Virus record (IMG/VR): IMGVR_UViG_3300017613_002395
Strand: one strand, 5' to 3'
From: a virus
Length of the DNA: 64,000 nucleotides
A program made the position numbers and the translations under genes. Below the pieces are notes generated by a model. The model was not told the origin of the DNA and made no database searches. It saw only the letters and a program-made list of their open reading frames with translations. Of the stretch, positions 3,571 to 38,505 are shown piece by piece (the first letter of the stretch is position 1; the number at the start of each line of letters is the position of its first letter).

Positions 3571-5118
3571 ATGGAGTTAAAACCGGAACTGGTAGATGCA
3601 GCAGAGAAAGAGATTCGACGACGTTCTGAAAATGATCCCCTGCTGTTTCTGCGTAATCTAAGAATAGCATCGGCCCAGGGGCCACAGTTGTTTGATTCGT
3701 GCATTGCGGATTTTCAACTGAAGACCTTCGAGAAGCTGATGCCGTCTCTGGCAGCCGTCCGTCTCGGGAGGATGCCGCCGATCCGTCGATTTTGGATTGA
3801 GCGGACAAAAAAGGCATCTAAAGACGCAGATATTGCGGCTGCCCTTTTGTGGCTGACCGCTTTTCCTACCCGACCTCTTCTGGTCCAGGTCTGCGCAGCC
3901 AACCAAAAGCAGGCTGGCATTATCAAGCGACGAGCCGCCAATTTGCTGCATTACAATGAGTGGTTGATGGGCCACGTTTTCATCCAGCAGAATCGGATTC
4001 TTAGCGCCGATCGAATGGCCGAGGTGGTCATCGAATCCACCGACGCAACAGGAGGCGGGTCACATGGGGACACCCCGGATGTGCTGATTCTCAATGAGCT
4101 GGTCCATGTTGCCCGTTGGCCGGCAATGGAGACGCACATGGCCAACGCTGACGGCGTCCCGAGGGGTGTGGTGGTTGTTTGTACCAATGCTGGCATCAAG
4201 GGCACCAGGGCCCACGTCTGGCGACGGAACGCGATAGCAAACCCGAAGCGGTGGGCTGTGTACACATTTAGTAAAAAGGCCCCCTGGCTGGCTGATGCTG
4301 ATGTTGAGGAGGCTCGGGTCCGTGATCCGGTGGGGGCCGAATTTGCCAGGTTGTGGAAGGGAATATGGGTTAGTGGTACAGGTGGGGCACTGAACGATGC
4401 CGCAATTGATGCTTGTTTTAGGATGCAGGGCTGTTTGAACGGCCCGGAGCAGGGGTGGCATTATGTAGCTGGTCTTGATCTGGGCGTATCACATGACCAT
4501 TCAGGGGTTGTTGTTTTGGGCGTGAACGTAGACGCGCAGATAATCAGAACCGCTCGATTCAAGGCGTGGATGCCGACCGTCCCGAATGACACCGGACAGC
4601 TTGAAGTTGATCTGATAGATGTAGAAAATGCATGCGAAGAGCTGAGCAGTCTTTTTCACATCGAGTGGTTTGGATATGATCCGGCGGCCGGTGGATCATT
4701 TATGGCCCAGCGTTTGAGGAAGAGAAATGTCCCGATGCGGGAGATGGCATTCTCAAAGCCGTCGAATCTGACCGAGATGGCTAAGGCCCTGGTATCATCG
4801 GTGTCGGATGGAAAGTTGGAGTGTTATGACGATTCAGACGGGCGGCTGAGGCGGGACTTTGGGAAGTTTTCTATCACACACAGACCACCGAGCAATTACA
4901 AGCTCGAAGCCGTTTCTGATGAGTTTGGTCATGCTGATGTGGGCACAGCATTGGTGATAGCTTTACCGGAGGCGATCCGCATGATGGGTGGCTGGGCCAG
5001 ATTTGGGGAGGGTGATGTCATAGCTAACAACGATGATGCTCCATTGAGCGATGCCGAGGTAGCAGCCATGCCACAGGAGCTGGCTGATATCTACAATTCG
5101 GGGGACGGCGGTTGCTGA
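3571..5118 (+). CDS. terL: terminase large subunit
   Basis: 515 aa. Walker-A-like WIERTKKASKD, Walker-B-like DVLILNE, RNaseH-like nuclease half (AGLDLGVSHDHSGVVVLG ... DEFGHADVGTALVIAL). Confidence 0.8.
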   Translation: MELKPELVDAAEKEIRRRSENDPLLFLRNLRIASAQGPQLFDSCIADFQLKTFEKLMPSLAAVRLGRMPPIRRFWIERTKKASKDADIAAALLWLTAFPTRPLLVQVCAANQKQAGIIKRRAANLLHYNEWLMGHVFIQQNRILSADRMAEVVIESTDATGGGSHGDTPDVLILNELVHVARWPAMETHMANADGVPRGVVVVCTNAGIKGTRAHVWRRNAIANPKRWAVYTFSKKAPWLADADVEEARVRDPVGAEFARLWKGIWVSGTGGALNDAAIDACFRMQGCLNGPEQGWHYVAGLDLGVSHDHSGVVVLGVNVDAQIIRTARFKAWMPTVPNDTGQLEVDLIDVENACEELSSLFHIEWFGYDPAAGGSFMAQRLRKRNVPMREMAFSKPSNLTEMAKALVSSVSDGKLECYDDSDGRLRRDFGKFSITHRPPSNYKLEAVSDEFGHADVGTALVIALPEAIRMMGGWARFGEGDVIANNDDAPLSDAEVAAMPQELADIYNSGDGGC

Positions 5119-10387: not shown

Positions 10388-10963
10388 ATGGCAACCACCG
10401 ACATTTTACTTGCCGTTGGTACGCAGATCCGCTGCTGTGTGGCGGGGAGCCTTTCTCCGGCGGACGACGGCACGAACTTGACGATCGGCACCCCCGATGA
10501 TTACGCGTTGACTTTGGCGGGTGTTGCGGACACAGAGGCGAGGCAGAGTGCCAAGATCGACCTGGGGGAAACCCGCGCAGCGCAGTATGAAGTGCTGGGT
10601 TGCGTGGATTTCACCGGGGAGACTCCCGACGCTGTTGGCCAGATCGACTATTACTGGGCACCGTCGACGCACGCAACGGCAGCTAACGGCAACGTGGCGG
10701 GCAACTCAGGCGGTGATGCGGACTGTCCTGATGGGGCGCTCGGAACTATCACGCTTGCCGAGTTCCTGAAGCTGTGCATCCCGATCGGGTGCCTGTTGAC
10801 CCACGACGGGGCCTGCGTGCAGAACGGCTACGTCGGCCGGTTCAGCCCGCCGGGTCGCTATGGGCAGTTGATCGTCGTCAATAACAGCGGCGATGCGTTC
10901 GAGGATGACGACGTCGAGATGCACCAAGTCCTGAATCCGATTATCGACCAGTTCCAGGCATGA
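10388..10963 (+). CDS. hypothetical virion-type protein (in GC-rich block)
   Basis: 191 aa. Its stop overlaps the next start (ATGA). Confidence 0.55.
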   Translation: MATTDILLAVGTQIRCCVAGSLSPADDGTNLTIGTPDDYALTLAGVADTEARQSAKIDLGETRAAQYEVLGCVDFTGETPDAVGQIDYYWAPSTHATAANGNVAGNSGGDADCPDGALGTITLAEFLKLCIPIGCLLTHDGACVQNGYVGRFSPPGRYGQLIVVNNSGDAFEDDDVEMHQVLNPIIDQFQA

Positions 10964-13098
10964 GCGATCTGATCGTTCCACCTTTTGAAGGCGCGTTCGA
11001 TTACAACCCCGGCTGGGGCGGGCCTGCGCCCGTGCTCTGGCTGCACGCGGGGCATCAGGCGAACGTGGGCAACACGACGGCATTTGACCTGTCACCGCAG
11101 AAGCACCGCCTGACGTGGGCCGGCTCGACGACGGAGCGAAATGTCGTGACGGATCGGGGGCGGACGTACACGTTCGGCGGAACGGGCGTCCAGGACACGC
11201 TGGCCGCCGGCAACATCGGGGTCACGTTTGCAGGCGCGTCGCCCTTCGCGGCGCTCGCGTGGGTGACTACTGCCTCGGCGGACGACGCGAGAATCATCTG
11301 TGGGACGGGCTACGACGACGGCTGGTATTTGCGAATGGAGTCCGACGGCAAGCTCCGCGCGAAACTCGACGACGGCACGAACGACGCCCACGAAGTCACA
11401 AGCGAAACGATCGACGACGGCGAGCCGCATCAAGTGGGACTCGTACTGACCACCACGCGATTGTGGACCATTCTCGATGGGCAGGTGATCAAAGACATCA
11501 GCCGAGGCACGGTCGGCGCGATGGTGAGTGATGTTTCGATCGGATTTTGCAGCGGCGCGAATAGATTTCATAACTATTGGGATGGACAGATTGCGAGCCT
11601 GGCCATCTTTCCCGGTGCGATCACGCCCGCACAGATTTGGCAGCACTACACCTCCAGTCTCGACGGCAGCCCCGGCTGCCTGGCCGCGCCGATTGCGCGG
11701 AGGGTGTTTGCATCGGCTGTGGTGGAGGAGGAGAGTTCCAGTTCGATTAGCACGAGTATCTCATCCCAAAGTAGTCATTCTAGCTTTTCATCATATTCGG
11801 TTACATCTAGTACAAGCTCTATCAGTGGGTACAGCAGCGAGTCATCATCCCCCAGCAGCACATCATCTCCCAGTAGTGCATCGTCACAATCGTCGTTGAG
11901 CAGTTTGTCCAGTCCGTCCTCTTCGTCCATCAGCACAAGTAGCCCATCGTCGAGTAGCTCATCAATTTCGTCCACATCATCCTCTTCGTCAATAAGTACA
12001 AGCAGTGTTTCCAGTACCAGCTCGATTAGTACAAGCAGTGTGTCGTCGGTCAGCAGTCCATCATCCAAAAGCAGTGTTTCCAGTTCCAGTTCTAGTTCGA
12101 TCAGCACAAGCAGTCCATCGTCAACAAGCAGTTCGGTCAGTTCCAGTTCCAGTTCGATTAGTACAAGCAGTCCATCATCTCCAAGCAGCCAATCGTCCCA
12201 AAGCAGTGTTTCCAGTACCAGTTCTAGTTCAATCAGCACAAGCAGCCCATCGTCAACAAGCAGTTCGGTCAGTTCCAGTTCCAGCTCGATTAGTACAAGC
12301 AGCCCATCATCTCTAAGCAGTCCATCATCTCTAAGCAGTCCATCATCCAAAAGCAGTGTTTCCAGTTCCAGTTCGATCAGTACGAGTAGTGTTTCCAGCA
12401 GCCAATCGGCATCATCACAGTCGTCGAGTTCGATAAGCACAAGCAGTTCATCGCAGAGCAGCTTATCCTCAGCGTCATCAACATCTTCTTCGTCAATAAG
12501 CACAAGCAGTGTTTCCAGTTCTAGTTCGATCAGCACAAGCTCAAGCAGCCCATCATCTTTAAGCAGCCCGTCATCACAATCGTCGTTGAGCAGTTTGTCC
12601 AGTACGTCAAGCAGTTTATCATCTTCAAGCAGCCCGTCATCACTATCGTCGTTGAGCAGTTTGTCCAGTACGTCAAGCAGTTTATCATCTTCAAGCAGCC
12701 CATCATCTTCAAGCAGTCAATCAAGCAGTTCATCCAGCCAATCATTATCGCCAAGTAGCACGTCGTCGGTCAGCAGCCTATCGTCTTCAAGCAGCCCGTC
12801 ATCCCAAAGCAGTCAATCAAGTAGCCCATCGTCGTTGAGCAGCTCTATCAGTAGCTTGTCTTCGATGAGCAGTTCCTCCAGCAGCCAACCATCGTCGAGC
12901 AGTTCGGGGGGAACGTCATCATCATCGAGTAGTGAATCATCTAGTTCTAGTTCCAGTCCTGGTGTTGTGGACTGGCCTGATTCTAAATCGGTGACGAAGA
13001 TGGGGCCTTGTTCTGTGGTGGTTGATGGTATGGGGCCATTCAGCAAAACGATATCGGGTTTGGGGCCCGCTTCGGCTACAATATCTAAGGGAGTATGA
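10960..13098 (+). CDS. LamG (concanavalin-A-like lectin) domain protein with a ~400-aa Ser-rich tract; fibre or decoration candidate
   Basis: LamG_3-like pattern (ALAWVTTASADDARIICG...DDGEPHQVGLVL...DGQIASLAIFPGAITPAQIWQHY), followed by SSSISTSS repeats. Confidence 0.7.
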   Translation: MSDLIVPPFEGAFDYNPGWGGPAPVLWLHAGHQANVGNTTAFDLSPQKHRLTWAGSTTERNVVTDRGRTYTFGGTGVQDTLAAGNIGVTFAGASPFAALAWVTTASADDARIICGTGYDDGWYLRMESDGKLRAKLDDGTNDAHEVTSETIDDGEPHQVGLVLTTTRLWTILDGQVIKDISRGTVGAMVSDVSIGFCSGANRFHNYWDGQIASLAIFPGAITPAQIWQHYTSSLDGSPGCLAAPIARRVFASAVVEEESSSSISTSISSQSSHSSFSSYSVTSSTSSISGYSSESSSPSSTSSPSSASSQSSLSSLSSPSSSSISTSSPSSSSSSISSTSSSSSISTSSVSSTSSISTSSVSSVSSPSSKSSVSSSSSSSISTSSPSSTSSSVSSSSSSISTSSPSSPSSQSSQSSVSSTSSSSISTSSPSSTSSSVSSSSSSISTSSPSSLSSPSSLSSPSSKSSVSSSSSISTSSVSSSQSASSQSSSSISTSSSSQSSLSSASSTSSSSISTSSVSSSSSISTSSSSPSSLSSPSSQSSLSSLSSTSSSLSSSSSPSSLSSLSSLSSTSSSLSSSSSPSSSSSQSSSSSSQSLSPSSTSSVSSLSSSSSPSSQSSQSSSPSSLSSSISSLSSMSSSSSSQPSSSSSGGTSSSSSSESSSSSSSPGVVDWPDSKSVTKMGPCSVVVDGMGPFSKTISGLGPASATISKGV
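11734..12957 (+). repeat. Ser-rich tract S1 with higher-order tandem repeats (~126-nt and 66-nt units)
   Basis: Near-pure Ser with a recurring SSISTSS motif. The core agttcgatcagcacaagc is shared with S2 and S3. Confidence 0.9.
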
Positions 13099-13099: not shown

Positions 13100-13435
13100 A
13101 TGTCCTTGATCTATGCATACAAAGCCAGGGGGATGAAGCGGGCCCTTGCCATCAAGAATGCCGATGGTGAAACCATTACACCGGGATCAAATGACCTGGT
13201 CCGGATTACCATAGGGAGAGAGGGCGAGACGGCTAAGCTCACGGTGACTTCGGGGACGCCCACGTCCAATGGCAGTAGCGTGACAAAGGGGGCGAGCAAC
13301 GTGCTGAGGCTGGATGGTGGAGACCTTGACTTTGATCCGGGCACGTACACGCTCAAGGTTGATTATTTTGACAATGCCGATAGTCAGGAATGGAAAAACG
13401 TAGACCGACAGGTTTTTGTTTTGGAAGGGGAATGA
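13100..13435 (+). CDS. small Ig-like/beta-rich virion protein
   Basis: ATG after AAGGGAG, inside ORF 13022..13435. 111 aa. Confidence 0.5.
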   Translation: MSLIYAYKARGMKRALAIKNADGETITPGSNDLVRITIGREGETAKLTVTSGTPTSNGSSVTKGASNVLRLDGGDLDFDPGTYTLKVDYFDNADSQEWKNVDRQVFVLEGE

Positions 13436-13436
13436 G

Positions 13437-14051
13437 ATGATCACCGAGTTTATGATGGTGGGTGGTTTGTTGTTTTGGGGGTTTTTGTTCCTCATAAGTT
13501 TGACGCTCATTGCTTGTGTGGAATCAGAACAGAGTTGGGGTTGGGGGCTGTTCCTGTTAGTTGTTGTGGGTGCTGTTTTGATGTTGTTTAGTGATGCTTG
13601 GGTATGGGTGAAAGAGAATCCATTGCTTGTTGTGGGGTTGATTGTGGGGTACATGCTGGTTGGGGTTGCGTGGACAATCCCTCGTTGGATCATTTTCCTG
13701 CGACGTGTGCGGACCAAGTTGAAACAAGCCAGAGTGCGTTTCTGTGACAAGAATGGATTAGATTGTGGGCCAGGGGAGCGGTTGCCACAGGAGCACTGGA
13801 AGGCGTGGTCCGATGAGGTGTGTTGGCGTTTTGTGCGGTATGGCATATCGTTCGATGCTGATAAGGGCGAACTGAATCCACCCTCCTTCTCGGTCAACCG
13901 GGATATGATCATTGTCTGGGCACAGCTCTGGCCCTGGAGTGTTTTCTGGACAATCTTCCGTGAGATTGTCATGGAGTTCATTGAGACCGTGGTGGATTGG
14001 TGGGGCCAGTTATACGGCCGACTGTCTGAATGGTTCTTCAAAGACATTTGA
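13437..14051 (+). CDS. multi-pass membrane protein
   Basis: ATG after GGAAGGGG. At least three hydrophobic segments at the N-terminus. Confidence 0.5.
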   Translation: MITEFMMVGGLLFWGFLFLISLTLIACVESEQSWGWGLFLLVVVGAVLMLFSDAWVWVKENPLLVVGLIVGYMLVGVAWTIPRWIIFLRRVRTKLKQARVRFCDKNGLDCGPGERLPQEHWKAWSDEVCWRFVRYGISFDADKGELNPPSFSVNRDMIIVWAQLWPWSVFWTIFREIVMEFIETVVDWWGQLYGRLSEWFFKDI

Positions 14052-14060
14052 GGTTGTGAC

Positions 14061-14861
14061 ATGGGACAGATTGTAGATATCAGCGAAGTGCTACTCCGCC
14101 TCGGTTTATCATCTTCGGTGACTGAAGAGGAGAGGGCCATTGTAGGAGCAGCACTGCAGGAGGCCGAAGGTGAGGTGAAGCGGCATCTGCGATACGATCC
14201 GGCCCAGGCGTCCCGAACCGAATTCTACCCGCAGCAGATGATCGGGGCATCTTCACGAGAGGGTGCGTGGGAATCGACAAACACAGAGGCATACATACGC
14301 CGTGTGAGTGAATCGGCTACAAGTGAGTTGTTTGTGCGTCACCTGCCAATTCGGAGTAGTCCAGCCATTGACCTCCGGATTGATTACGATGGCAAGGCAG
14401 GGGCCAAGACAGGGGCCTTTGCTGTCACCACGAAGAAAGTTGAGGGCACTGATTTTTGGCCCAATTACGACATGCTGGATTCGGATGGGCATGGGGTTTG
14501 TCGTGATGGAATAGTAAGATCCATTGGTTTGTGGCCAACCGAGGCAGGGTCGGTGAAGATTGCCTACACGGCTGGGTACACGGATTCCGAGTTGCATGGA
14601 CAGGATACAATGATAGATGCTTCACCCATCATGGGGGCAATAATTGGAGAAGCCATCCGCCGGGCGAAGATCATATTCACAAACATGAAGACATCTCGTG
14701 GGTGGGCAGCCGGCAATTTGAATAGTGAGAGCTTGGGTGATTACAGCTATTCGACCGATGGTTCTGGGGCCGGTGTCACTCTGAGCAACGCTACGCTGCT
14801 TGGAACCACAAAAGAGAAGCTGGCTGATTTTGTTAATTGGGGGTTTTCCTTGGGAGGCTAA
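14061..14861 (+). CDS. head-tail connector (gp6-like N-terminus) protein
   Basis: N-terminus ISEVLLRLGLSSSVTEEERAIVGAALQEAEGEVKRHL resembles the gp6/QLRG connector family. Confidence 0.4.
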   Translation: MGQIVDISEVLLRLGLSSSVTEEERAIVGAALQEAEGEVKRHLRYDPAQASRTEFYPQQMIGASSREGAWESTNTEAYIRRVSESATSELFVRHLPIRSSPAIDLRIDYDGKAGAKTGAFAVTTKKVEGTDFWPNYDMLDSDGHGVCRDGIVRSIGLWPTEAGSVKIAYTAGYTDSELHGQDTMIDASPIMGAIIGEAIRRAKIIFTNMKTSRGWAAGNLNSESLGDYSYSTDGSGAGVTLSNATLLGTTKEKLADFVNWGFSLGG

Positions 14862-15992: not shown

Positions 15993-16368
15993 GCTGCGAT
16001 ACTGGTGGCGGTTTCGTCGGGAGTCACGTCGATTTGCAGCCGATTTTGAGCAGGCCACCAGATGGAAACGAGAAGCGCTTCGATGCTTGCAGGATCTGAG
16101 TCGCAGCACAAAGCGACTGGAGCAGTTGTTGGCACGGGTGCAGGAAGAAGCCGAAGACGTTGCTGAGAAGTTAGCCGACACGGATAAGCTGGTGAAGAGC
16201 TATGATTACGCCGAGGAGGCGTTGAATAACAAGCTCTTGGTGATGGAAGAGGCCCTCAAAGACATGACGTTGCTGAGGGAAATGACCCGAGAGCAGGTCA
16301 AGGCTGATATAGCTGTACATGCAGCTAGACAAGAGGCCCTGGCGCACACTGAGAGGAGGGACGAATGA
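15982..16368 (+). CDS. coiled-coil protein
   Basis: Internal ATG of ORF 15937..16368, chosen to minimise overlap. Start uncertain. Confidence 0.35.
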   Translation: MVNKLRYWWRFRRESRRFAADFEQATRWKREALRCLQDLSRSTKRLEQLLARVQEEAEDVAEKLADTDKLVKSYDYAEEALNNKLLVMEEALKDMTLLREMTREQVKADIAVHAARQEALAHTERRDE

Positions 16369-17966
16369 GTGTTTTGAAAAAGGCTTTTGGCTCAAGTCGG
16401 GCTTTGTCAGTTGTGGCACATGATCGATCCTACCGAATCAAGGCCGGCGGTGTGGGCAGCACATTGACCGCACCCACAAACTTCGGTGGGATGACTGATT
16501 GGGCTAATCAGCGTGGGTATTCGGAGAAGTACGGCCTATTTCATTCGTGGTTGTACTCGGCAATCAATGCTGTTGCTTCCGAAGCGGCTGGCCAGCCCGT
16601 CTGTGTTGGTCAGATGAAGGGCAAGGAGACAAAAAAGAAGGAACAGCAGGAGAAGTTGGTCATTGTGAAATCGAAGATGACCACCACGGCAAGGAGTAAG
16701 ACCGCCAACCAGGAGTTGGAGGTGCTTGGGGATTCGCCCCTCCGGGGTGTCTTGGAGAATCCCAATCCCATTCAGGGCAGATGGCAGTTTGTTTATGCAG
16801 CTGTTACTAATCTGTGTTTGACGGGATGGTCATACATTGTCTATGGCAAGACCAAGGAGGGGTTGGAGTTGTATGCTCTGCCAACGACCTGGGTGACCCC
16901 ATGCCACGAAAAGGGCGCCTTTGCCCAATTCAAAGTATCTAATCCCAAGCGACGAGCAGTGGGGGCTGAACCCGTTGTGTTGGGCAGGGACAACGTGGGG
17001 TTCATGCACTTGCCCAATCCCAGCGATCCGCTGAGTGCCATGGCCCCGGCATCGGCTGAGATGATGGCCATTCGGATCAATGATCATATCTGGACTAGCC
17101 GTGAACAGTTTTTCAGCAACGGGATTTTCCCTTCGGTGATCGTGACCATTGGCAAAGAGCCACACCCCGAAGTCGCAGGGGGTATCCGGCCCAGGCTGAC
17201 GGGTTCGCAGCGGAGGCAGGTAAAAGGGGCCATCAGCAAGGTGATGGGAGGTGTGGCCAACTATGGCAACCCAGCGATCGTGGATGGTTTGATCGAGAAG
17301 ATTGAACGGCTGAGCATGACGCAGAATGAGATGGGATGGGACAAGTCTGAGGAGTCAGTCAAACGGTCGATCCTCTCTGCCTATGGTGTTCATCCCTACA
17401 TTTTGAATGAGGCGCTGAACGTTGGTGGATATGCACAGGCCACAAACATTGAGAAGCGTTTTCACAAACGGGTCAACACGTATTTGGACATGCTTGGCAA
17501 CGTAGTGACAAATTTGGTGGGCAATGCTGAGGAGGACGAGGAAAGCAGTCTGTTGGTTTGGTGGGAGAAGTGTGAGAGTCAAGATCCTCAACAGCGAAAC
17601 TCGATGCTTCGATTTGCCAGGCAGAACAATGACATCAGCCAGAACGAATTTCGGGCTGAGTTGGGGTTTGCTCCTGATGAAGATTGCAACGAGTCGGTAA
17701 TTGACAAATCATCCATTCCTGGCATTGTTAATCTGCTTGGCCAGGTGGGGCAGGGGAGCATCACGCCGGAGCAGGCAAGAGCCGTAATGGAGGGCCTTGG
17801 CATTCCGTCCGATATGGCCAAGAAGATTGCGGGCAAGGCTAAGGAGGTAGCAGCCGTGCAGCAGGCGACTGGTGCATTGCAGGAGGCGACCGAGGAGCTT
17901 CGGCAGACACCGGAGGAGGAAGTTGAGAAGTTGGCGAATCTGATATTGAAGGCCGCCCAAAGCTGA
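16365..17966 (+). CDS. portal protein
   Basis: 533 aa. Size and position fit (upstream of MuF, protease and capsid), with an HK97-type portal-like central region. Confidence 0.7.
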   Translation: MSVLKKAFGSSRALSVVAHDRSYRIKAGGVGSTLTAPTNFGGMTDWANQRGYSEKYGLFHSWLYSAINAVASEAAGQPVCVGQMKGKETKKKEQQEKLVIVKSKMTTTARSKTANQELEVLGDSPLRGVLENPNPIQGRWQFVYAAVTNLCLTGWSYIVYGKTKEGLELYALPTTWVTPCHEKGAFAQFKVSNPKRRAVGAEPVVLGRDNVGFMHLPNPSDPLSAMAPASAEMMAIRINDHIWTSREQFFSNGIFPSVIVTIGKEPHPEVAGGIRPRLTGSQRRQVKGAISKVMGGVANYGNPAIVDGLIEKIERLSMTQNEMGWDKSEESVKRSILSAYGVHPYILNEALNVGGYAQATNIEKRFHKRVNTYLDMLGNVVTNLVGNAEEDEESSLLVWWEKCESQDPQQRNSMLRFARQNNDISQNEFRAELGFAPDEDCNESVIDKSSIPGIVNLLGQVGQGSITPEQARAVMEGLGIPSDMAKKIAGKAKEVAAVQQATGALQEATEELRQTPEEEVEKLANLILKAAQS

Positions 17967-19082: not shown

Positions 19083-19250
19083 ATGGTTGGTGTCTTTGCA
19101 AATTTGGTTGATGAGCTTATGGATATTGAGCTGATGGCCCAACAGGATGATGTGAGTCAGGAAGATTGGGGATGGCAGGTGGATGCACTGTTTCAAAAAT
19201 ACGCTCTATTGTTGGTTGGGGTAGATCCCCCAGCCCAATCATTGATGTGA
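19083..19250 (+). CDS. small acidic ORF (55 aa) between the two polyvalent genes
   Basis: Same frame as 17979..19061, after its TAA. The peptide MVGVFANLVDELMDIELMAQQDDVSQEDWGWQVDALFQKY... looks protein-like. Below the ORF-track length cut-off. Confidence 0.3.
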   Translation: MVGVFANLVDELMDIELMAQQDDVSQEDWGWQVDALFQKYALLLVGVDPPAQSLM

Positions 19251-19258
19251 GACTGCCT

Positions 19259-22009
19259 ATGCCCACTACAGCGTCAGAATGGCTGGCTGAGCATCCGGAG
19301 GATGTTGGAGCCCTAACGGAGATGCTCGCAGGGCTGGATGGCTTTCCCATTCAGGTGTGGACGGAGATGCCTGAAGACATGAAGCGGATCATAGCTGAGC
19401 AATTAGTGGAATCGTTCGCTCAGCCGTACTGGGATGATATCTCTGCTGTGACTGCTGGTCATGCGGAAGAATATTTGGTGAAGGGACTTCAAGAAGGGTG
19501 GTCCATCCGCAGGATTGCCAGCACGATGGCTGAGAGCTTTCAGGGTGGGACGAGCAAATATGCAATGATGCGAGCCACCAGAATAGCCCGCACAGAAAGC
19601 GGACATGCGCTGAATGCAGCCCGCAAGGCTCCCATAGACCAATTGATGGCTGAATTGGGCCCACAGGTGCCCATGCAGCCCGTGTGGCTGAGTGTGTTGG
19701 GGAACACGACGAGGGATTCCCATGCCAACCTGGATGGTGTGCCGGCCGACGAAAATGGTGAGTGGGAATTGGGTGGTGTTAAGATCCCATGGCCAGGACA
19801 CATCAGTTTACCAGCTTCAGAGCGGTGCAATTGTTTTCCAGCCGGAACTTTAGTTGAAGGCGACTTTGTCGGGTCGCAGCGTGCGTGGTACGAGGGGGAG
19901 TTTGCCAAAATCGTGACCGCGTCTGGAAGACGTCTCACCGTGACCAAAAATCACCCAATAGTAACCTCTAAGGGACTTGTTGCTGCAAGCATGTTGCAGC
20001 CAGGTGATAAGGTCCTTGCCTACAATTCCAAGATCAATAGCAGGCATTGTTCCCCCGTTGGTGTGGACAAATTTGCCATTGATACATTTGCGAGTCACCT
20101 TCTTTCGAGCGGCAATCAAAAACAGGACAAACCAGCCCCTATCGAGCAAGTATGCCAAGCGTTCTTTTCCGGGTTTATTTCCAGTTTGGGGACGGGGTTG
20201 GTTGAAATCCGCGACACTCAGATGGACGATTTCTATGGCGACGGAAAATTCATCAAGGGCAAGATCGAGATTGTAAGGGCCAACTGGAAATTGCTGCAAG
20301 ACGGGAAATTTGGCCAATTTGAGAAATGTGGCGATTCGATCTTCGTCCTTGAACCTGCCGAGTTGTCGGTGAAATTTGGTGATGGCTCTAGCAGATTTTG
20401 TGGCGTCGGAGTCTCGGGAGCCGCGACGTGCTTTCCATGCTGCACCGAGAGTCTTTTGGATGTACGAGGGCGATTTGAAATTACGCCATCGGGCTCGTTG
20501 GCTGTCGGAGTAGCTGCGGATTTTAATACCAGCCTCAAGGAATCGGCGGCGAAGGAGGGGGCGGGAGTGTCCAGTTTCCTTCGAGATTCGCTGCAGCGAT
20601 ACCCCGGAGTTGTATTGTTCGATGAGATCACCGAGGTTCAAAATTTCTATGCGTCTCATTATGTGTATGATCTCCAATCGAGTTATGGGTTAATTGTTGC
20701 GTTTGATCCTGATTCTACAGGGTTGGGGGGCATTGTCAATAGTAACTGCCAATGCACCATTGTTACCCAGTTTGGTATGCAGGAGGGTGATGCCCAGCAG
20801 TTGATCCAGCAGTACTTCGACCGCAAGCTGGATTATGAAGGGGGCAAATCCGTATCGGAGAAGTTCAATCCCTACCACGGACCAGACGGACGGTTTTCGT
20901 CAGGATCAGGTGGTGGAGCCCACATGGCTCCAGATACAGGAGGTGGAGCAGGTGGGGGTGGGGGTGCTGGGATTGGTTCTTTCAAAGTGGGCACGAAAAA
21001 CAGCAAGAGCGAGCGGAGGCTGCATAAGACGTGTGCTAAGTTTTCAAGAGATGATCAGATGCTTGATGAGGACTTTAACACACCAGCTAGAAGGATAAAC
21101 GAGCAGGCTGCTCAGGCTAATGGCGTACGTGAACGGTTTAAGAAGCCGAAGGCTGATTTTGAGATTCGGGTAGTAAGAACAAAGGATGTTACACCGAGCC
21201 AGGATTACGATGATTGGATGGATGATCACGCTAAAAATATGGCTGGTTTGTTGAGAAAATTCAACGGCCCACAGGCTACCGACATGATGGAGGGAGAGGT
21301 TATTAATGTGGTCACGCCCATAGCAATCGAGAAGGGCGGAAAGCTCATCGATGGGAACCATAGGCACGCAGCACACGTCATCAATGGGGAAGATCATATT
21401 GTGGCTATTGTTGCTTTGGAAAGGCCCCAAGCTACTGGAAAAGTGGTAAATATGACGGAGGCTCTGCAGGCTTTGAGGCATATGAAGTCGGCTGAGTTAC
21501 TGGAGAAGTTCAATCCACATCATGGATCAGATGGACGGTTTTCGTCAGGATCAGGTGGTGGCGCTCACATGGCCCCAGATACAGGAGGTGGAGCAGGTGG
21601 GTCAGCGGCTGGTGGGGGGAGCACACGCAGTTCCAGAGCCAAGCGAACACACAAACCAAGCACAAAAGAAAAGCAGCAGAGAGCGGAATCTGAGCAGGCC
21701 CGATTGGCAAAACTGATTAGGGGCACAAATACCGACGACAATGATGCTTTCGATGTGTTGGGATCGGGTTGGGCCGTCGAGGTCAAAACCATAATGGACA
21801 ATAACAACAACAAGATAACGATGCACCCGAAAAGTCGACGGAGGAAGGAATCTTATGCAGAGGAGCATGGGGTAACAAAACACACGGTTGTGATTGATGT
21901 GAGGGGCAGCAAGCGTAGTTATTACCACAAGGCAGGAGTCGGGGCTTATCGTTTGTCGTCTATGAGCAGGATTTCTGTTTCTGAAATCAGAGAAAGGCTG
22001 GGGGCATGA
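19259..22009 (+). CDS. MuF/SPP1-gp7-family head morphogenesis protein (intein-containing) fused to a ParB-like nuclease domain and a PD-(D/E)XK domain
   Basis: MuF-like RTESGHALNAAR...TTRDSHANLDGV...ERCN|intein|CQCT. ParB-like KLIDGNHRHAAHVINGEDHIVAIV. REase-like DAFDVLGSGWAVEVKT. ATG at 19259 is preferred over the TTG at 19166. Confidence 0.8.
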   Translation: MPTTASEWLAEHPEDVGALTEMLAGLDGFPIQVWTEMPEDMKRIIAEQLVESFAQPYWDDISAVTAGHAEEYLVKGLQEGWSIRRIASTMAESFQGGTSKYAMMRATRIARTESGHALNAARKAPIDQLMAELGPQVPMQPVWLSVLGNTTRDSHANLDGVPADENGEWELGGVKIPWPGHISLPASERCNCFPAGTLVEGDFVGSQRAWYEGEFAKIVTASGRRLTVTKNHPIVTSKGLVAASMLQPGDKVLAYNSKINSRHCSPVGVDKFAIDTFASHLLSSGNQKQDKPAPIEQVCQAFFSGFISSLGTGLVEIRDTQMDDFYGDGKFIKGKIEIVRANWKLLQDGKFGQFEKCGDSIFVLEPAELSVKFGDGSSRFCGVGVSGAATCFPCCTESLLDVRGRFEITPSGSLAVGVAADFNTSLKESAAKEGAGVSSFLRDSLQRYPGVVLFDEITEVQNFYASHYVYDLQSSYGLIVAFDPDSTGLGGIVNSNCQCTIVTQFGMQEGDAQQLIQQYFDRKLDYEGGKSVSEKFNPYHGPDGRFSSGSGGGAHMAPDTGGGAGGGGGAGIGSFKVGTKNSKSERRLHKTCAKFSRDDQMLDEDFNTPARRINEQAAQANGVRERFKKPKADFEIRVVRTKDVTPSQDYDDWMDDHAKNMAGLLRKFNGPQATDMMEGEVINVVTPIAIEKGGKLIDGNHRHAAHVINGEDHIVAIVALERPQATGKVVNMTEALQALRHMKSAELLEKFNPHHGSDGRFSSGSGGGAHMAPDTGGGAGGSAAGGGSTRSSRAKRTHKPSTKEKQQRAESEQARLAKLIRGTNTDDNDAFDVLGSGWAVEVKTIMDNNNNKITMHPKSRRRKESYAEEHGVTKHTVVIDVRGSKRSYYHKAGVGAYRLSSMSRISVSEIRERLGA
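19832..20746 (+). mobile_element. intein (305 codons) inserted in the NC(R/Q)CT motif of MuF
   Basis: Cys1 in CFPAGTLVEGD, block B TVTKNHPIVT, blocks F/G HYVYDLQSSYGLIVA...GGIVNSN, and a +1 Cys. Excision gives ERCN-CQCT. Confidence 0.75.
19850..20659 (-). CDS. HTH plus Vsr/DUF559-type PD-(D/E)XK endonuclease (homing endonuclease candidate), antisense within the intein
   Basis: Minus-strand ORF open from 19850 to 20677 (TTG). ATG at 20659 lies 11 nt after GGAGA. Motifs: GVSLQRISKETGHSRPLLRRRF, PVGPYNLDLALDEFSVAIEIVH, ERLAYLLDRGWFVLF. Confidence 0.7.
   Translation of the reverse strand: MRRIEILNLGDLIEQYNSGVSLQRISKETGHSRPLLRRRFLEAGIKIRSYSDSQRARWRNFKSPSYIQKTLGAAWKARRGSRDSDATKSARAITKFHRQLGRFKDEDRIATFLKLAKFPVLQQFPVGPYNLDLALDEFSVAIEIVHLSVADFNQPRPQTGNKPGKERLAYLLDRGWFVLFLIAARKKVTRKCINGKFVHTNGGTMPAIDLGIVGKDLITWLQHACSNKSLRGYYWVIFGHGETSSRRGHDFGKLPLVPRTLRPDKVAFN
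20849..20971 (+). repeat. linker repeat L3 (SVSEKFNPYHGPDGRFSSGSGGGAHMAPDTGGGAGGGGGAG)
   Basis: Separates the MuF domain from the ParB-like domain. Confidence 0.85.
21497..21619 (+). repeat. linker repeat L4 (LLEKFNPHHGSDGRFSSGSGGGAHMAPDTGGGAGGSAAGGG)
   Basis: Separates the ParB-like domain from the PD-(D/E)XK domain. Confidence 0.85.
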
Positions 22010-23301: not shown

Positions 23302-23361
23302 GGTAATCTGCAAATAGGTTATATTTGGGATCGTAAGACGTCTAGGCTCTTCGTTGATGCT

Positions 23362-23396
23362 GCGGCGTGTTGTTCCAGGAACACACGTCGCTTTTT
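23362..23396 (+). terminator. intrinsic terminator-like hairpin plus T-run
   Basis: gcggcgtgttgttcc-agg-aacacacgtcgc followed by ttttt. Lies just upstream of RBS GGAG and the ATG at 23411. Confidence 0.5.
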
Positions 23397-23410
23397 ATTG
23401 GAGTCATGAG

Positions 23411-24166
23411 ATGGGAAAGAATGTCACTTTTTACCTGGGACCGGGCGGCACTCACTTGGCGAGTCGTAGCTTGGTGGTCACCCGGATGCGAAGAGCCGGT
23501 GATGATTCAGCTCTGGCGGCTGCATACACAAATGCAGGTATTGTGAACACGACGGAAATACAGACGGTTCCCCTAGCTGATAGCACAATCTATCAGGCTG
23601 TGGGGGTGGATACCTTGGCGGATGGGTCGACGAGTGTGCCCGACGTTTTGAATTTCCACACGGGATCGTTGCAATTTCCTGGTCCCAGATCACAAGACCG
23701 TTTGTCGATCTTGGGCATGGAGGACTTGTCGAGTAGTTCCTCTAGCAGTTCTTCCAGCAGCGTTTCCAGTGGATCTTCCAGTTCCTGGTCGAGCACGAGC
23801 AACAGCTCTAGCCACAGTAGTTCGAGCAGTTCCAGTTCCAGTAGTTCGAGCAGTTCCAGTTCGGTCAGCACGAGTAGCATCAGCACAAGCTCGGTCAGCT
23901 CCAGCTCCAGTTCGATTAGCACAAGCTCGGTCAGCTCCAGTTCGATCAGCACAAGCTCGGTCAGCTCCAGTTCCAGTAGTCCGAGCAGCTCCAGTTCCAG
24001 TAGTTCGAGCAGTGTAAGCTCCAGTAGTTCGAGTAGCTCCAGTTCGATCAGCACAAGCTCGAATAGCTCCAGTTCCAGCAGTGCGAGCAGTTCTAGTTCC
24101 AGCGGCTCAAGCAGCTCCAGTTCCAGCAGTACGAGCAGTGCATCGTCCAGTAGTTGGTCCACCTAA
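23411..24166 (+). CDS. virion-associated protein: ~105-aa N-domain plus ~145-aa Ser-rich tract
   Basis: In-frame ATG after the terminator and GGAG. The C-terminal two thirds are Ser repeats with SSISTSS. Confidence 0.6.
   Translation: MGKNVTFYLGPGGTHLASRSLVVTRMRRAGDDSALAAAYTNAGIVNTTEIQTVPLADSTIYQAVGVDTLADGSTSVPDVLNFHTGSLQFPGPRSQDRLSILGMEDLSSSSSSSSSSSVSSGSSSSWSSTSNSSSHSSSSSSSSSSSSSSSSVSTSSISTSSVSSSSSSISTSSVSSSSISTSSVSSSSSSPSSSSSSSSSSVSSSSSSSSSSISTSSNSSSSSSASSSSSSGSSSSSSSSTSSASSSSWST
23729..24157 (+). repeat. Ser-rich tract S2
   Basis: Shares ~48 nt of near-identity (atcagcacaagctcggtcagctccag...ttcgat.agcacaagc) with S3. Confidence 0.9.
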
Positions 24167-24922: not shown

Positions 24923-26614
24923 ATGCCATTGCCATTGCCAAAACAAGGGGAGGCCAAGGATGCTTTTGTGGCCCGTTGTGTGGCAAGTGATGCAATGGTC
25001 GATGAGTATGGTGACGACAAACAGAGGCTCGCAGTGTGTTTCTCTCAGTGGGAGAGGGCCCAGGAGCAAAAAGATATGTCCGTGAATGATAAGCTGCTCA
25101 AGGTGATTCGGTCTCGGCAGCAGAAGCAAACCGAGTTTGCCTACGGCATTCTGACGGCTGATCGGTACGTCCAGACACTGAGCGACGTTGCTGGTTTTGA
25201 GGTTTGCTATCGTTATGGTTGTCAGGGGCATGTCAGCTTCAATGATGCATTGGAGAAGGCTGCCAAGACCCTGGTCTACAGCAATCCCGACATGGTCTTG
25301 CTTGATAAGGCCAGGGATCAGTACAGCCGACTGTCGGGGGAAAGGGATCTGCCGAAGAACACGTTGATGGTTTTTCGGCATGTGCTTACTACCAGCAGGA
25401 AAGACCGCGATGGGGATGTTCTTCATGCAGATGGCATGGAAACCGACCCGAAGATGCTCCTGCTTTGGCAGCACGTTCACACAATGCCAATCGGTAAAAT
25501 GCTGGCCGAGGTGGATCGGACCAAAGACAAACTGATCCTCGATTCATGCATCATTGACATCAATGATTTGTCCCACGATGCTGCCGTCATGATTGACAAT
25601 GACATGGGCCGCTTTTCGCATGGGTTCCGTGCTTTGGAATTCCAGAAAATCAAAGCCGAGGATGGATCGGATAGTGGCTTTGACATAACGAAGGGCGAGA
25701 TCATGGAGGAGAGCCTGGTATCGGTGCCGGCAAATCCGGATTCTGAAACCGAGCAGGTTCTGCTGTCATTGGTCGAAGGCAAGAAGCTCACAAGCCCGTT
25801 GATGAAAGAAGTAGGGAAAGGTATCCGCGAGAGGTTGCCGGTGACGGTGCCCGTTAAGCTGGATGTCAAGATGACCATCAATGGTCAGGAGGTGGAAGAT
25901 GAGAACAAGTCCGGAGATCGAAAAGAAGAGGGAGGAGGAGAAACAGGCACATCAGAAAAAGCCGATGAGGGTGGTGGAAAAGAAGGCAAGCAAAAGCCAA
26001 AGCCCGAAGACAAGGAAGTGAAATGCCCGAAGTGCGGCAGCACAGACATTGAGGATGGTGTGTGCCAGGACTGTGGTTACAAGATGCCCCCTTCCATTGA
26101 TTCTGGAAAAGATGCCGATGGGCAGGAGAAGGAATCATTTGATTGTGAGTGCCTGGATTGTGGCCATCAGGTGACTTCATCGAAGCACTGCGATGAGTTG
26201 GAGTGCCCTGAATGTGGTGGGGAGATGCGGAGAGCTGAAAGACCCGGTCCTGGCAAAGCCGGCAGGGTCATTTCGGGCACAAACGAGTCGAAGATTCGGG
26301 ATGCCAAAGCTGATATTGATGAGGTGCTGAAGTCGGATCAGCTTGATCGGACGTTGAAGGCCACACTTCGCCAAGCCAGCAGGACACTCGACGCTGTGCT
26401 TGCTTCGTTAGGCACACCAACGCAGAAGGATGAGGGATTGGATGTTGCTGATGTGGCAAACATTGTGTTGCAGAAATTCACAGCTGTTCAAAGGCAGATT
26501 TTGGCCGATGCAATTGGAACCATCCGTGAGGTGGATAAGCAGGAGGCAGAGGCTGCTGCTGTTAATGCATTGATGGGAATCAAATTCAATCCGAATCATG
26601 GGGAAGGCCATTGA
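24923..26614 (+). CDS. prohead protease (HK97 family) fused to a charged region, two zinc ribbons and a scaffold-like C-terminal part
   Basis: VLTTSRKDRDGDVLHADGME...LLWQHVHTMPIGKM (protease core). KCPKCGS...CQDCGY and CECLDCGH...CPECGG (zinc ribbons). Ends in GIKFNPNHGEGH. Confidence 0.7.
   Translation: MPLPLPKQGEAKDAFVARCVASDAMVDEYGDDKQRLAVCFSQWERAQEQKDMSVNDKLLKVIRSRQQKQTEFAYGILTADRYVQTLSDVAGFEVCYRYGCQGHVSFNDALEKAAKTLVYSNPDMVLLDKARDQYSRLSGERDLPKNTLMVFRHVLTTSRKDRDGDVLHADGMETDPKMLLLWQHVHTMPIGKMLAEVDRTKDKLILDSCIIDINDLSHDAAVMIDNDMGRFSHGFRALEFQKIKAEDGSDSGFDITKGEIMEESLVSVPANPDSETEQVLLSLVEGKKLTSPLMKEVGKGIRERLPVTVPVKLDVKMTINGQEVEDENKSGDRKEEGGGETGTSEKADEGGGKEGKQKPKPEDKEVKCPKCGSTDIEDGVCQDCGYKMPPSIDSGKDADGQEKESFDCECLDCGHQVTSSKHCDELECPECGGEMRRAERPGPGKAGRVISGTNESKIRDAKADIDEVLKSDQLDRTLKATLRQASRTLDAVLASLGTPTQKDEGLDVADVANIVLQKFTAVQRQILADAIGTIREVDKQEAEAAAVNALMGIKFNPNHGEGH
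26576..26611 (+). repeat. truncated linker motif L5 (GIKFNPNHGEGH) at the protease C-terminus
   Basis: Same KFNPxHG core as L1-L4. Confidence 0.6.
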
Positions 26615-26711
26615 GATTAGATCTCCCAATCCATTCCCCATCAGGAAAGCGACACGTCGCGGTTTGGTCCGTGATGGTCACAGCGATCGGTCTTAGTTGA
26701 AAGGTTCAAAA

Positions 26712-30029: not shown

Positions 30030-30797
30030 ATGACTCGAAGCATCAGCAGCCCGAAAGTTAATTTCAAGATGTCGGGCAGTCTGCGAAACACTCTGACCGA
30101 CGATTCCAGTGTGAGTGTTGCTCAGCCAAATTTCAACTACTCCCCAACACTGACTAACGGGGTGAGTGCAAATCAAGTCAATCGGGCATGGCAATCTGAG
30201 GGACGCTCCATTGTTGAAGGTGCGCAGGAAACAATCAACGTCAGTACATTCGACGGACTGGATATTGGGGCTGGCGATGGCATGGATGCGTTGGGTCAGG
30301 CGCTAGATCTCGAAGAGATCGTTGCGATTGTGATTCAAAACGACGGGGCCGTAACTGCTGCCGGCCGGCTGGAAATCATCCCGGCAAACTCCCATGGATG
30401 GGACCCGATTGGCAGCCACACAGTGGCAAACGGTGGGGCCCTCCGGGGCCAGGGTGTGTTGATCAAGGCCCAAGTAGCCGAGGCCGGTTTTGACGTTGCA
30501 CCAGGCACCACCGATCGAATCACAATGAGGGCTGTCGGGGGAGCCGTCACATACTCGATTTACATCTTGGGACGTCATGATGATGGTGAATCGAGCAGCT
30601 CTAGTCAGTCCAGTAGTTCGAGCAGCGAATCGTCCAGTAGTTCGAGCAGTGCCAGCAGTTCGGTCAGCACAAGTAGTATCAGCACAAGCTCGGTCAGCTC
30701 CAGTTCCAGTTCGATCAGCACAAGCAGTTCGTCGAGCAGTCAGAGTGATTTGTCTAGCTCTTCGAGTTCTAGCGAGAGTTCCAGCAGCCTGTCGTAA
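30030..30797 (+). CDS. virion protein with C-terminal Ser-rich tract
   Basis: RBS TAGGAG. ~185-aa beta-rich domain followed by SSSSQSSSSSSESS...SISTSS. Confidence 0.55.
   Translation: MTRSISSPKVNFKMSGSLRNTLTDDSSVSVAQPNFNYSPTLTNGVSANQVNRAWQSEGRSIVEGAQETINVSTFDGLDIGAGDGMDALGQALDLEEIVAIVIQNDGAVTAAGRLEIIPANSHGWDPIGSHTVANGGALRGQGVLIKAQVAEAGFDVAPGTTDRITMRAVGGAVTYSIYILGRHDDGESSSSSQSSSSSSESSSSSSSASSSVSTSSISTSSVSSSSSSISTSSSSSSQSDLSSSSSSSESSSSLS
30591..30794 (+). repeat. Ser-rich tract S3
   Basis: Contains the shared agttcgatcagcacaagc core. Confidence 0.9.
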
Positions 30798-38496: not shown

Positions 38497-38505
38497 GGAG
38501 ATGTC

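Follow-up and report, generated by a model that had tools for sequence, protein, structure and literature searches.

Serine tracts sharing a SISTSS motif in four structural-module genes of an uncultured siphovirus-like phage, and a putative glycan-modification cluster beside them

Serine tracts in four genes of the structural module

The window analysed here is the whole stretch of viral DNA of IMG/VR record IMGVR_UViG_3300017613_002395, 64,000 nucleotides (nt) long, which covers most of the genome of an uncultured siphovirus-like phage and has nearly all of its long open reading frames (ORFs) on the + strand. Four + strand ORFs, designated S1 to S4, contain in-frame serine tracts of about 408 (S1), 143 (S2), 68 (S3) and 81 (S4) amino acid residues (aa), which share the hexapeptide SISTSS. 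An initial annotation had reported serine tracts at these positions, and all four are indeed in frame within long + strand ORFs. The ORFs and their tracts are as follows.

10960-13098, + strand: S1, fibre-like protein of 712 aa with a LamG/ConA-like N-terminal domain, a 408-aa tract and a 46-aa C-terminal region
11734-12957, + strand: S1 Ser tract (aa 259-666 of the ORF), with 11 SISTSS copies in 10 encodings
12958-13095, + strand: S1 C-terminal region PGVVDWPDSKSVTKMGP, with the motif [DN]WP[DA][SG]K[ST][IV][ST]V.G
23354-24166, + strand: S2, with a conserved N-terminal domain of about 105 aa (likely start M20, nt 23411) and then a C-terminal Ser tail
23729-24157, + strand: S2 Ser tract, with 4 SISTSS copies, reaching to a few residues from the C-terminus
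30030-30797, + strand: S3, with a jelly-roll beta-sandwich N-terminal domain (aa 1-185, modelled) and then a C-terminal Ser tail
30591-30794, + strand: S3 Ser tract, C-terminal, with 2 SISTSS copies and the end ...ESSSSLS
35655-37388, + strand: S4, distal tail protein of 577 aa with an N-terminal part, an internal Ser hinge and a C-terminal domain of about 155 aa
36672-36914, + strand: S4 Ser tract, internal, with 7 SISTSS copies, mostly in TCN codons

Within sliding-window bounds, which include some flanking residues, Ser accounts for 293 of 432 residues in S1 (aa 249-680), 119 of 160 in S2, 54 of 81 in S3 and 52 of 98 in S4. Mucin-like domains have tandem repeats rich in Pro, Thr and Ser, with dense O-glycosylation; the S1 tract contains tandem repeats, but its Ser residues (293) far exceed Thr (26) and Pro (22). 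A six-frame translation of the window contains 24 copies of SISTSS, all of them in these four frames (11, 4, 2 and 7 copies in S1 to S4 respectively). When the residues were shuffled 20,000 times inside each codon-aligned tract, where 11, 4, 2 and 6 copies are observed, the observed number was never reached for S1, S2 or S4 and was reached in four shuffles for S3. The tracts and the motif are real and non-random.

Architecture of the carrier proteins

The tracts have three architectures: a C-terminal tail (S2 and S3), a tether (S1) and a hinge (S4). Those of S1 and S4 lie between two domains, in the position of a polyserine linker, and those of S2 and S3 run to the stop codon or nearly so. What the initial annotation regarded as one module is therefore common to the four proteins as a peptide motif, but it has three architectural roles. 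In the AlphaFold2 model of S3, the predicted local distance difference test score (pLDDT) is above 90 for nearly all of the N-terminal domain and mostly below 50 for the tail (residues 188-243). By this modelling the tracts are disordered, in agreement with the extended form proposed for them initially.

S1 matches Pfam Laminin_G_3 at aa 81-226 (E=8e-10). No relatives of this LamG domain were found in viral contigs, and proteins of S1-type architecture were reached via portal-centred loci (fetched viral loci, including relatives, are given L-numbers). The S1-type proteins of L217 and L218, which are likewise encoded upstream of the portal gene at the position of S1, keep the C-terminal motif but differ in the N-terminal domain, and their tracts are 225 and about 640 aa long. 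The C-terminal region of S1 is the probable attachment end of the fibre, because this short end is conserved, whereas the N-terminal domain is swapped. The small gene after S1 (13100-13435, about 111 aa, MSLIYAYKARG...) has a clear homologue directly after the S1-type gene of L218 and probably belongs with the S1 fibre. It is overlapped by an antisense ORF (13187-14140), which an ORF map wrongly preferred.

The S2 gene is located between the genes for a MuF-like head protein and the prohead protease, and the S3 gene between connector genes and the gene for a 143-aa probable tail tube. Foldseek matched the S3 model weakly to jelly rolls of PDB (plant-virus coat proteins) and, in BFVD, to phage proteins that are uncharacterised. 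S3 was considered as the major tail protein and rejected, because the model is a jelly roll and no tail-tube structure is among the Foldseek matches shown; for the same reason it is regarded as an accessory protein. The 143-aa protein (30816-31247) is likelier than S3 to be the tail tube. It is the best conserved among the structural proteins compared with relatives (up to 83% identity). The Ser content is ordinary in this protein (0.08) and in the capsid protein (0.07), and neither has a Ser tail. In L041, 503 aa of poly-Ser connect the S3 domain to a Gly_rich_2 domain on its C-terminal side. Relatives share 25-37% identity with the N-terminal part of S4, and no homologue of the C-terminal 155 aa or so of S4 was detected in any related locus. 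S2, S3 and S4 gave no PHROGs, NCBIfam or Pfam matches, and none of the carriers matches a glycoside hydrolase or carbohydrate-binding module family, LamG_3 being found in S1 alone.

DNA relations and variability of the tracts

The DNA core AGTTCGATCAGCACAAGC, which had been noted as common to S1-S3, is present at 12094, 12523, 23939, 24041 and 30708, and TCCATTTCAACATCG is present at 36879 in S4. The near-identity of S2 and S3 is confirmed, but it is longer than the approximately 48 nt first reported: S2 23837-23926 and S3 30633-30725 are 91% identical over 93 nt, with a 33-nt exact core. Likewise, the 66-nt unit reported for S1 is found at 12541-12707, but the larger unit, reported as about 126 nt, is 132 nt long by tandem-repeat analysis and is present in 2.5 copies at 12009-12339.

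Ungapped scores between tracts were compared with those obtained after shuffling synonymous codons with each peptide kept fixed. The S2-S3 score of 58 exceeds those of the shuffles, which average 17 and reach 39 at most. The S1-S2 and S1-S3 scores (27 and 30) slightly exceed the respective shuffle maxima (26 and 24). The DNA score of S4 with any other tract is within the synonymous-shuffle range. These results indicate that S1-S3 share identity at the DNA level, strongly for S2-S3 alone, and that S4 shares the peptide only, in other codons, as had been observed before. When the shared DNA core was used as a probe, two viral contigs were matched, one from a relative (L009) and one unrelated.

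L001 and L002 are 99.74% identical over 12 kilobases (kb), and the sole indel between them is one 9-nt SAS unit in the S2-type tract. Five of their 22 mismatches are inside the 267-nt S3-type tract. Slippage and gene conversion at the tracts are supported by this indel, the range of tail lengths among relatives (20-142 aa) and the near-identity of S2 and S3, which fits the earlier suggestion that the tracts are hotspots for length variation and recombination.

Conservation of the tracts among relatives

All 133 homologues found for the S3 N-terminal domain are metagenomic. Among the 120 listed, 118 end in a Ser tail, with lengths between 20 and 142 aa and a median of 71. The tails of this family begin directly after a conserved junction, RHDD(D/E/N)E, with SSSS, and SSS[L/W]S closes the tail in 45 of the 60 nearest homologues. 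For S2, 26 homologues were detected, and all 10 whose sequences were read have a Ser tail, which follows the junction ...LSI(L)SMED(L/E)SSSS. S2-type genes are also present in L001-L007, L010, L011, L013 and L215-L218. In public gene calls, antisense ORFs are placed over the S2-type tracts at L010 2164-3507 and L011 3773-4224, and the true + strand gene is missed. S2-type proteins are under-represented in protein databases (26 against 133 for S3) because of such calls, and there are probably more S2 homologues than those detected.

The tracts are kept at the same positions in related contigs of 33-60% guanine-plus-cytosine (GC) content. Same-position tracts are found on more than 100 independently assembled contigs (JGI, ENA, NCBI, Logan), while the domains flanking them in more than 100 homologues diverge to 36-65% identity. 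An acidic residue (D or E) is present within 4 residues before the tract in 63 of 66 distinct tract starts. Long tracts are also found in other relatives: L039 contains a Ser tract of 427 aa, and an ORF of 1846 codons in L062 encodes a tail protein with four Ser tracts.

SISTSS is among the two commonest mixed hexamers in the tails of the S3 family (91 copies, in 43 of 120 homologues), and SQSTSS comes next. A separate count in the fetched DNA also gave 91 copies, from 16 sources, which are written in 80 distinct 18-nt encodings and cover 13 of the 16 possible AGY/TCN patterns. A switch of a serine codon between AGY and TCN takes at least two substitutions and passes through a non-serine codon. 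The diversity of encodings is therefore good evidence for selection at the peptide level, beyond the spread of a DNA repeat, as the initial annotation had argued from S4.

Enzyme cluster downstream of S4

A run of + strand genes of 11 kb (37408-48571), which the initial annotation did not contain and which was found in the present analysis, starts 20 nt after S4. It encodes the following proteins.

37408-38496, + strand: sialyltransferase/Maf-like protein of 362 aa (PF01973, MptE-like, E=6e-5, 23.3 bits)
38506-38922, + strand: cupin (Pfam Cupin_2, 3e-8)
38919-39740, + strand: protein of 273 aa with a DXD-type motif
39733-40458, + strand: FkbM methyltransferase (Pfam Methyltransf_21, 1.5e-11)
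40398-41333, + strand: GT8-like DXD protein (weak GT8 match, E=0.19)
41330-42079, + strand: protein of 249 aa with a DXD-type motif
42001-42759, + strand: Sulfotransfer_4 protein (Pfam, 6e-16)
42746-43315, + strand: methyltransferase (Pfam, 4e-4)
43312-43974, + strand: Sulfotransfer_2 protein (Pfam, 6e-14)
43983-44534, + strand: Methyltransf_24 protein (Pfam, 3e-16)
44535-45101, + strand: protein of 188 aa, no assigned family
45114-45848, + strand: KdsB-like cytidylyltransferase (Pfam CTP_transf_3, E=2e-29), predicted synthetase of cytidine monophosphate (CMP)-linked 3-deoxy-D-manno-oct-2-ulosonic acid (Kdo) or another CMP-ulosonic acid
45730-46557, + strand: GT2-like DXD protein (weak GT2 match, E=4e-3)
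46567-47130, + strand: protein of 187 aa
47106-47834, + strand: Sulfotransfer_1/3 protein (Pfam)
47810-48571, + strand: sulfotransferase-like protein (no Pfam match; PRTGGT motif read by eye)

For the first protein of the cluster, hereafter the transferase, 424 homologues were found; those listed (120) are 50-62% identical, a higher conservation than that of most structural proteins, and none of them has a precomputed Pfam match. The invariant columns of the family include FL..GPS, NN, DPP and D-F, of which we take FL..GPS and NN to resemble the GNGPSL donor-binding motif of CstII. The AlphaFold2 model of the transferase has a pLDDT of 93.8, and its top PDB matches by Foldseek are MptE (8sd5, E=1e-3), CstII (1ro7/1ro8, E=3e-3, template modelling (TM) score 0.33-0.49) and mammalian GT29 sialyltransferases. 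The Maf domain PF01973 has a modified GT-A fold strikingly like that of CstII (1ro7), and Maf enzymes modify Ser/Thr of flagellin directly, with CMP-linked N-acetylneuraminic acid (Neu5Ac) or Kdo as the donor (bioRxiv 10.1101/2020.06.03.131540). The transferase is a candidate starter of tract glycosylation and a possible member of the Maf family. The transferase is Cys-rich at both ends (CxxC-type; C35 and C38 nearly invariant; C-terminal CPECNSW...CLKCHHKW), which suggests zinc-binding modules. We know of no such modules in CstII or Maf.

The KdsB-like protein matches the KdsB models of NCBIfam with a best E of 4e-45, below the curated cut-offs, and all 13 of its PDB matches are KdsB. Beside a CstII/Maf-like transferase, such an enzyme would therefore make a coherent pair for placing ulosonic acid on serine. 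The DXD-type motifs KMDTDVV, YLDADT and YTDLDILP were read in the translations of the DXD proteins. The cluster also has three confident sulfotransferases and methyltransferases of the FkbM and S-adenosylmethionine types. Among relatives, the conserved core consists of the transferase, the cupin, the 273-aa DXD protein, FkbM, the GT8-like protein, Methyltransf_24, the 188-aa protein, the GT2-like protein and often KdsB. The 249-aa DXD protein is the exception to conservation in most relatives within 38506-42079, and the sulfotransferases are the variable part, together with the methyltransferase at 42746-43315. About 2 kb of the window is given to serine tracts and 11 kb to sugar-related enzymes.

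The strongest terminator-like hairpin of a consensus scan (9 pairs and a T run) is located at 49034-49057, and the best sigma-70-like promoter match (11/12) directly follows it at 49066-49093. No comparably strong hairpin was found between S4 and 49034. The positions of this hairpin and the promoter-like site weakly suggest that the cluster belongs to the late structural block, and 49034-49093 suggests a boundary between a structural-plus-modification block and a replication block.

Co-occurrence of the transferase and poly-Ser tracts

The scan for tracts (minimum 40 aa and 56% Ser) covered 80 viral loci around transferase homologues (29-61% identity, 32-70% GC) and 120 control viral loci obtained via an arbitrary 14-mer. 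The results are as follows.

Close transferase homologues: tract in 35 of 47 loci, 6.7 tracts per 100 kb
Distant transferase homologues: tract in 16 of 33 loci, 6.3 tracts per 100 kb
Random viral loci: tract in 2 of 120 loci, 0.18 tracts per 100 kb

The transferase and the tracts co-occur, poly-Ser tracts being approximately 35 times more frequent near transferase homologues than in random viral loci. In a distant high-GC clade, no homologue of the structural genes of this phage is detectable within 10 kb, and a Ser/Gly-rich gene is located directly downstream of the transferase gene. The protein encoded by this gene has a weak, sub-threshold Hint-domain match. In L073 (9863-12237), the order is methyltransferase, transferase homologue, Ser/Gly-rich protein and then an ORF that resembles by eye a type I restriction-modification methylase. 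This arrangement is also present in L072, L074, L078, L081, L083, L086, L088 and L089.

Other features of the genome

The other genes of the structural module, and one of the replication block, are as follows; the source of the assignment is given in brackets.

3571-5118: terminase large subunit (Pfam/PHROGs)
14061-14861: head-tail adaptor (Pfam/PHROGs)
16365-17966: portal (Pfam/PHROGs)
19166-22009: MuF-like head protein (Pfam/PHROGs)
24923-26614: prohead protease (Pfam/PHROGs)
26697-28352: HK97-type major capsid protein (Pfam/PHROGs)
30816-31247: probable tail tube, 143 aa, directly after S3
32590-34746: tape measure protein (Pfam/PHROGs)
Between the tape measure protein and S4: tail protein of 304 aa
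55824-57230: SNF2 helicase, within the replication block that starts at about 49 kb

A tblastn search of the GenBank phages with the major capsid protein gave no match, and no cultured relative is available for this reason. Relatives of the phage, at 51-58% capsid-protein identity, are in IMG/VR and other metagenome assemblies. A first scan of genome contigs for a host found nothing. A second scan, with a capsid alignment, found two short contigs of metagenome-assembled genomes (MAGs), binned as Pirellulaceae and Georgfuchsia, and further homologues are labelled as Pacearchaeota or Bacteroidales MAGs, so that the host labels contradict one another. The window contains no tRNA genes.

The MuF-like minor head protein is 947 aa long and has a weak Intein_splicing match at aa 242-504, and its homologue in the relative L011 is 428 aa long; the gene may contain an intein. 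In the prohead protease ORF (563 aa), zinc-ribbon matches are found C-terminal to the Peptidase_S78 region, which is an unusual fusion. A tandem repeat of 45 nt in 2.2 copies (26958-27057, 98% matches) encodes a Lys/Glu-rich repeat in an N-terminal extension of the capsid protein, and another, of 24 nt in 5 copies (62390-62509), encodes (GDARKGST)-like units within ORF 61999-63051, which has no Pfam match. Genes resembling GIY-YIG/NUMOD3 homing endonucleases are located between the probable tail tube and tape measure genes of L010 (11283-12065) and L215 (10605-11218); no counterpart was seen in the window, the ORFs of which in this region were not scanned for these families.

Proposed role of the tracts

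The tracts are probably disordered stalks or brushes that are O-glycosylated by the phage's own enzyme cluster, with a probability of roughly 0.55. We infer that S1-S4 are virion proteins, that their tracts are glycosylated, that the sugar is of the kind indicated by the cluster and that the tracts serve as a coat. Each tract starts just past acidic residues and carries a selected S-[I/Q/V]-S-T-S-S element. According to this proposal, the free tails of S2 and S3, on small beta-rich proteins, would form a hydrophilic brush. The tether of about 400 aa in S1 would join a swappable N-terminal binding domain (LamG in this phage) to the C-terminal attachment motif, as a 'fishing-line' fibre, and the tract of S4 would act as a hinge, with the conserved body of a tail-tip protein on one side and its hypervariable distal domain on the other. 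The cluster behind the tail genes would O-glycosylate the tracts while they are still in the cytoplasm, either ahead of assembly or in its course. The KdsB-like enzyme would supply a CMP-activated ulosonic acid (Kdo-type), the sialyltransferase/Maf-like enzyme would place it on serine or on a first sugar, the DXD-type glycosyltransferases would lengthen the glycan, and the sulfotransferases and methyltransferases would decorate it. The outcome would be stiff, charged, mucin-like stalks, which space the binding domains and shield the particle. The tract DNA would expand and contract by slippage, and S2 and S3, less clearly S1, would exchange sequence by gene conversion.

Several points weigh against this proposal. 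It is from gene order alone that S1-S4 are placed in the virion; the initial annotation had assigned them to head, tail and fibres, but S3 does not have a tail-tube fold and the capsid protein has no tract. O-modification, which had been considered probable, is supported circumstantially, by the cluster and by the enrichment of tracts near the transferase family. The fold matches of the transferase are modest (E of about 1e-3 to 1e-1, TM 0.3-0.5); its PF01973 score of 23.3 bits is below the cut-off of 34.6 and covers aa 68-127 alone; the solved Maf structure 5mu5 is outside its top 50 Foldseek matches; and neither its single sequence nor the family profile gives a significant PDB match. The four putative DXD glycosyltransferases have weak Pfam support (GT2 E=4e-3, GT8 E=0.19) or none. 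The loci of the close group are mostly relatives, so that the co-occurrence among them amounts to approximately one evolutionary event and independent support comes from few lineages. A tract is absent from 12 of the 47 close-group loci; about half of the 12 have little upstream sequence, but in L046 the S4-type homologue has 10 kb of it and no tract. No cluster gene tracks the presence of SISTSS when gene presence is compared across relatives. The KdsB-type enzyme and the sulfotransferases fit remodelling of the host envelope equally well. Finally, bacterial polyserine linkers are not known to work in a modified form.

The strongest alternative, though clearly the less likely, is that the tracts are unmodified, flexible polyserine linkers and tails that act as entropic spacers, and that the cluster acts elsewhere, for example on host lipopolysaccharide or capsule, in superinfection exclusion or in freeing progeny from debris. 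In bacterial carbohydrate-active enzymes, polyserine linkers between domains are an established feature and are not described as glycosylated (PMC2386152), and S1 and S4 share exactly this inter-domain architecture. KdsB is an enzyme of the lipopolysaccharide/capsule pathway, viral glycosyltransferases alter host serotype or modify DNA (PMC12619734), and the lack of correlation between cluster genes and SISTSS is also as this alternative would have it. However, the enrichment of tracts by the transferase family is left unexplained, including that in the structurally unrelated high-GC clade with its adjacent genes, and a free tail with a conserved hexapeptide, an acidic start and an end motif exceeds the needs of a neutral spacer. 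The placement of the cluster last in the late structural block, away from the early genes, counts weakly in the same direction.

Glycosylation of the tracts is also to be distinguished from another serine modification, such as phosphorylation or direct O-sulfation, for which SISTSS would be the recognition site and in which no glycans are involved. The three confident sulfotransferase domains, the fourth, sulfotransferase-like protein and the peptide-level selection on SISTSS suit this explanation, which is nevertheless improbable, because the sulfotransferases are variable, whereas the sialyltransferase-like, DXD, cupin and FkbM genes form the conserved core, relatives without those sulfotransferase genes still carry tracts, and no kinase is present among the proteins scanned. 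Direct O-sulfation is further disfavoured in that the matched sulfotransferase Pfam families are mostly carbohydrate or small-molecule sulfotransferases.

Slightly less probable still is that the tracts are neutral, functionless low-complexity expansions, produced by replication slippage at AGY/TCN codons and tolerated at termini and domain boundaries. They do have strong tandem repeats and change rapidly in length, and C-termini and inter-domain sites tolerate insertions best. However, neutral expansions would not be expected to stay at the same positions in more than 100 homologues over 33-60% GC with flanks down to 36-65% identity, to keep a hexapeptide through changes of codon family or to have conserved start and end motifs, and tracts of 400-640 aa are costly for a small genome. 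That the tracts are assembly artefacts, collapsed or expanded repeats, as the initial annotation had allowed, is very improbable, because, although such repeats are hard to assemble from short reads and exact tract lengths may be off, the frames stay open across 1.2 kb of repeat into conserved C-terminal sequence and the same architecture recurs at the same positions in the independent assemblies from four sources.

Significance

Phage particles are usually treated as bare protein, and the one well-studied exception found cited is a small glycan at the C-termini of the capsid and tail-tube proteins in some mycobacteriophages. Literature searches for polyserine or serine-rich phage virion proteins gave nothing relevant. 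The particle of this phage may have a mucin-like sugar coat, undescribed for phages of this kind. A more specific form of the proposed glycosylation is speculative: a widespread uncultured lineage would have mucin-like virion glycoproteins, in which a Maf/CstII-like enzyme of the phage puts a CMP-activated, Kdo-type ulosonic acid directly on serines of the tracts, with S-[I/Q/V]-S-T-S-S as the preferred site, and the DXD transferases, sulfotransferases and methyltransferases then make an acidic, sulfated and methylated glycan. If so, a sulfated glycoprotein coat would be new for bacteriophages, as would virion glycosylation outside actinobacteriophages, and the fibres would be bottle brushes, possibly longer than 100 nm, with interchangeable binding domains. 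The scale of the lineage is indicated by the numbers of homologues, 133 for the S3 carrier and 424 for the transferase, on contigs that are 78-106 kb long and have 33-60% GC. If the tracts and the cluster are coupled, adsorption, diffusion in polysaccharide matrices, particle stability and recognition by immune systems or grazers would be affected, and a tail of about 70 aa with a few enzymes would be a compact, portable O-glycosylation tag.

The tracts are of interest even if they are unmodified. Gene callers often put antisense ORFs in their place, which leaves these proteins under-represented in databases. The largest low-complexity region in 102 surveyed phage proteomes was 115 aa, and Ala, Gly and Pro were enriched in such regions (PMC6821194). 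The tracts described here far exceed this maximum, and lengths of 400-640 aa are unusual for phages.

Comparison with known systems

In mycobacteriophage Che8 (cluster F1), and also in Rita, the C-termini of the capsid and tail-tube proteins are glycosylated by phage-encoded enzymes, according to Freeman 2023 as cited in PMC11256854 and PMC12619734. This is the nearest functional precedent. Like these siphoviruses, the present phage would encode its own glycosyltransferases, carry O-glycosylated C-terminal extensions on structural proteins and have a glycan shield. They differ from it in the following respects. The carriers are capsid and tail-tube subunits in Che8, whereas they are accessory proteins here, where the capsid protein and the probable tube are without a tract. 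The C-termini of the Che8 carriers, as read in their genes, are short (...VVFNKTGS and ...EQYSDGS), in contrast to Ser tracts of 70-400 aa. The enzyme set of the window is different and much larger, and includes sulfotransferases and methyltransferases besides a predicted route to a CMP-ulosonic acid.

The polyserine linkers of Saccharophagus degradans, Cellvibrio japonicus and Teredinibacter (Howard et al. 2004; PMC2386152, PMC2699552) are likewise mostly-Ser runs between domains, often next to a binding module, and use both kinds of Ser codon. Their architecture is that of S1 (LamG, poly-Ser, anchor) and S4. These linkers, however, belong to secreted bacterial enzymes, whereas the tracts described here belong to proteins of a phage structural module and reach 400-640 aa. 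The bacterial linkers measure tens of residues. In the window, two tracts out of four are free C-terminal tails, which link nothing, and the bacterial linkers have neither a conserved SISTSS element nor an adjacent glycosylation cluster.

The Maf flagellin system (PMC11339370, PMC4065374, bioRxiv 10.1101/2020.06.03.131540) resembles the proposed system in that a self-assembling protein is O-glycosylated on Ser/Thr inside the cytoplasm; flagellin is glycosylated before its export through the flagellar secretion system (PMC4065374). A CMP-ulosonic donor (Kdo is accepted by Maf), with a cytidylyltransferase encoded nearby, would be a further point of likeness, and the CstII-like modified GT-A fold may be another. 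The candidate CMP-ulosonic acid synthetase of the window (45114-45848) is in the same locus as the transferase and is present in many relatives. The phage protein differs from Maf in being at most half its size, in scoring below the Pfam cut-off and in having Cys-rich N- and C-terminal segments. Its proposed acceptor is a low-complexity tract, whereas Maf acts on folded flagellin domains.

Serine-rich repeat adhesins, such as Fap1, GspB and SraP, have long Ser-rich repeats that are densely O-glycosylated in the cytoplasm, and the resulting stalk projects a binding domain. They are anchored to the Gram-positive cell wall, have (S-x)n repeats and depend on accessory Sec export and on glycosylation by GtfA/GtfB. 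The repeat grammar of the tracts is different (SS-x-SS/SISTSS), and no GtfA/GtfB-type enzyme or accessory Sec export family was matched among the proteins scanned. Megavirinae giant viruses (PMC10117803) also encode sugar-nucleotide synthesis and glycosyltransferases and have a glycan layer on their surface fibrils. They are, however, eukaryotic giant viruses with unrelated proteins and sugars, and poly-Ser carriers are not described there.

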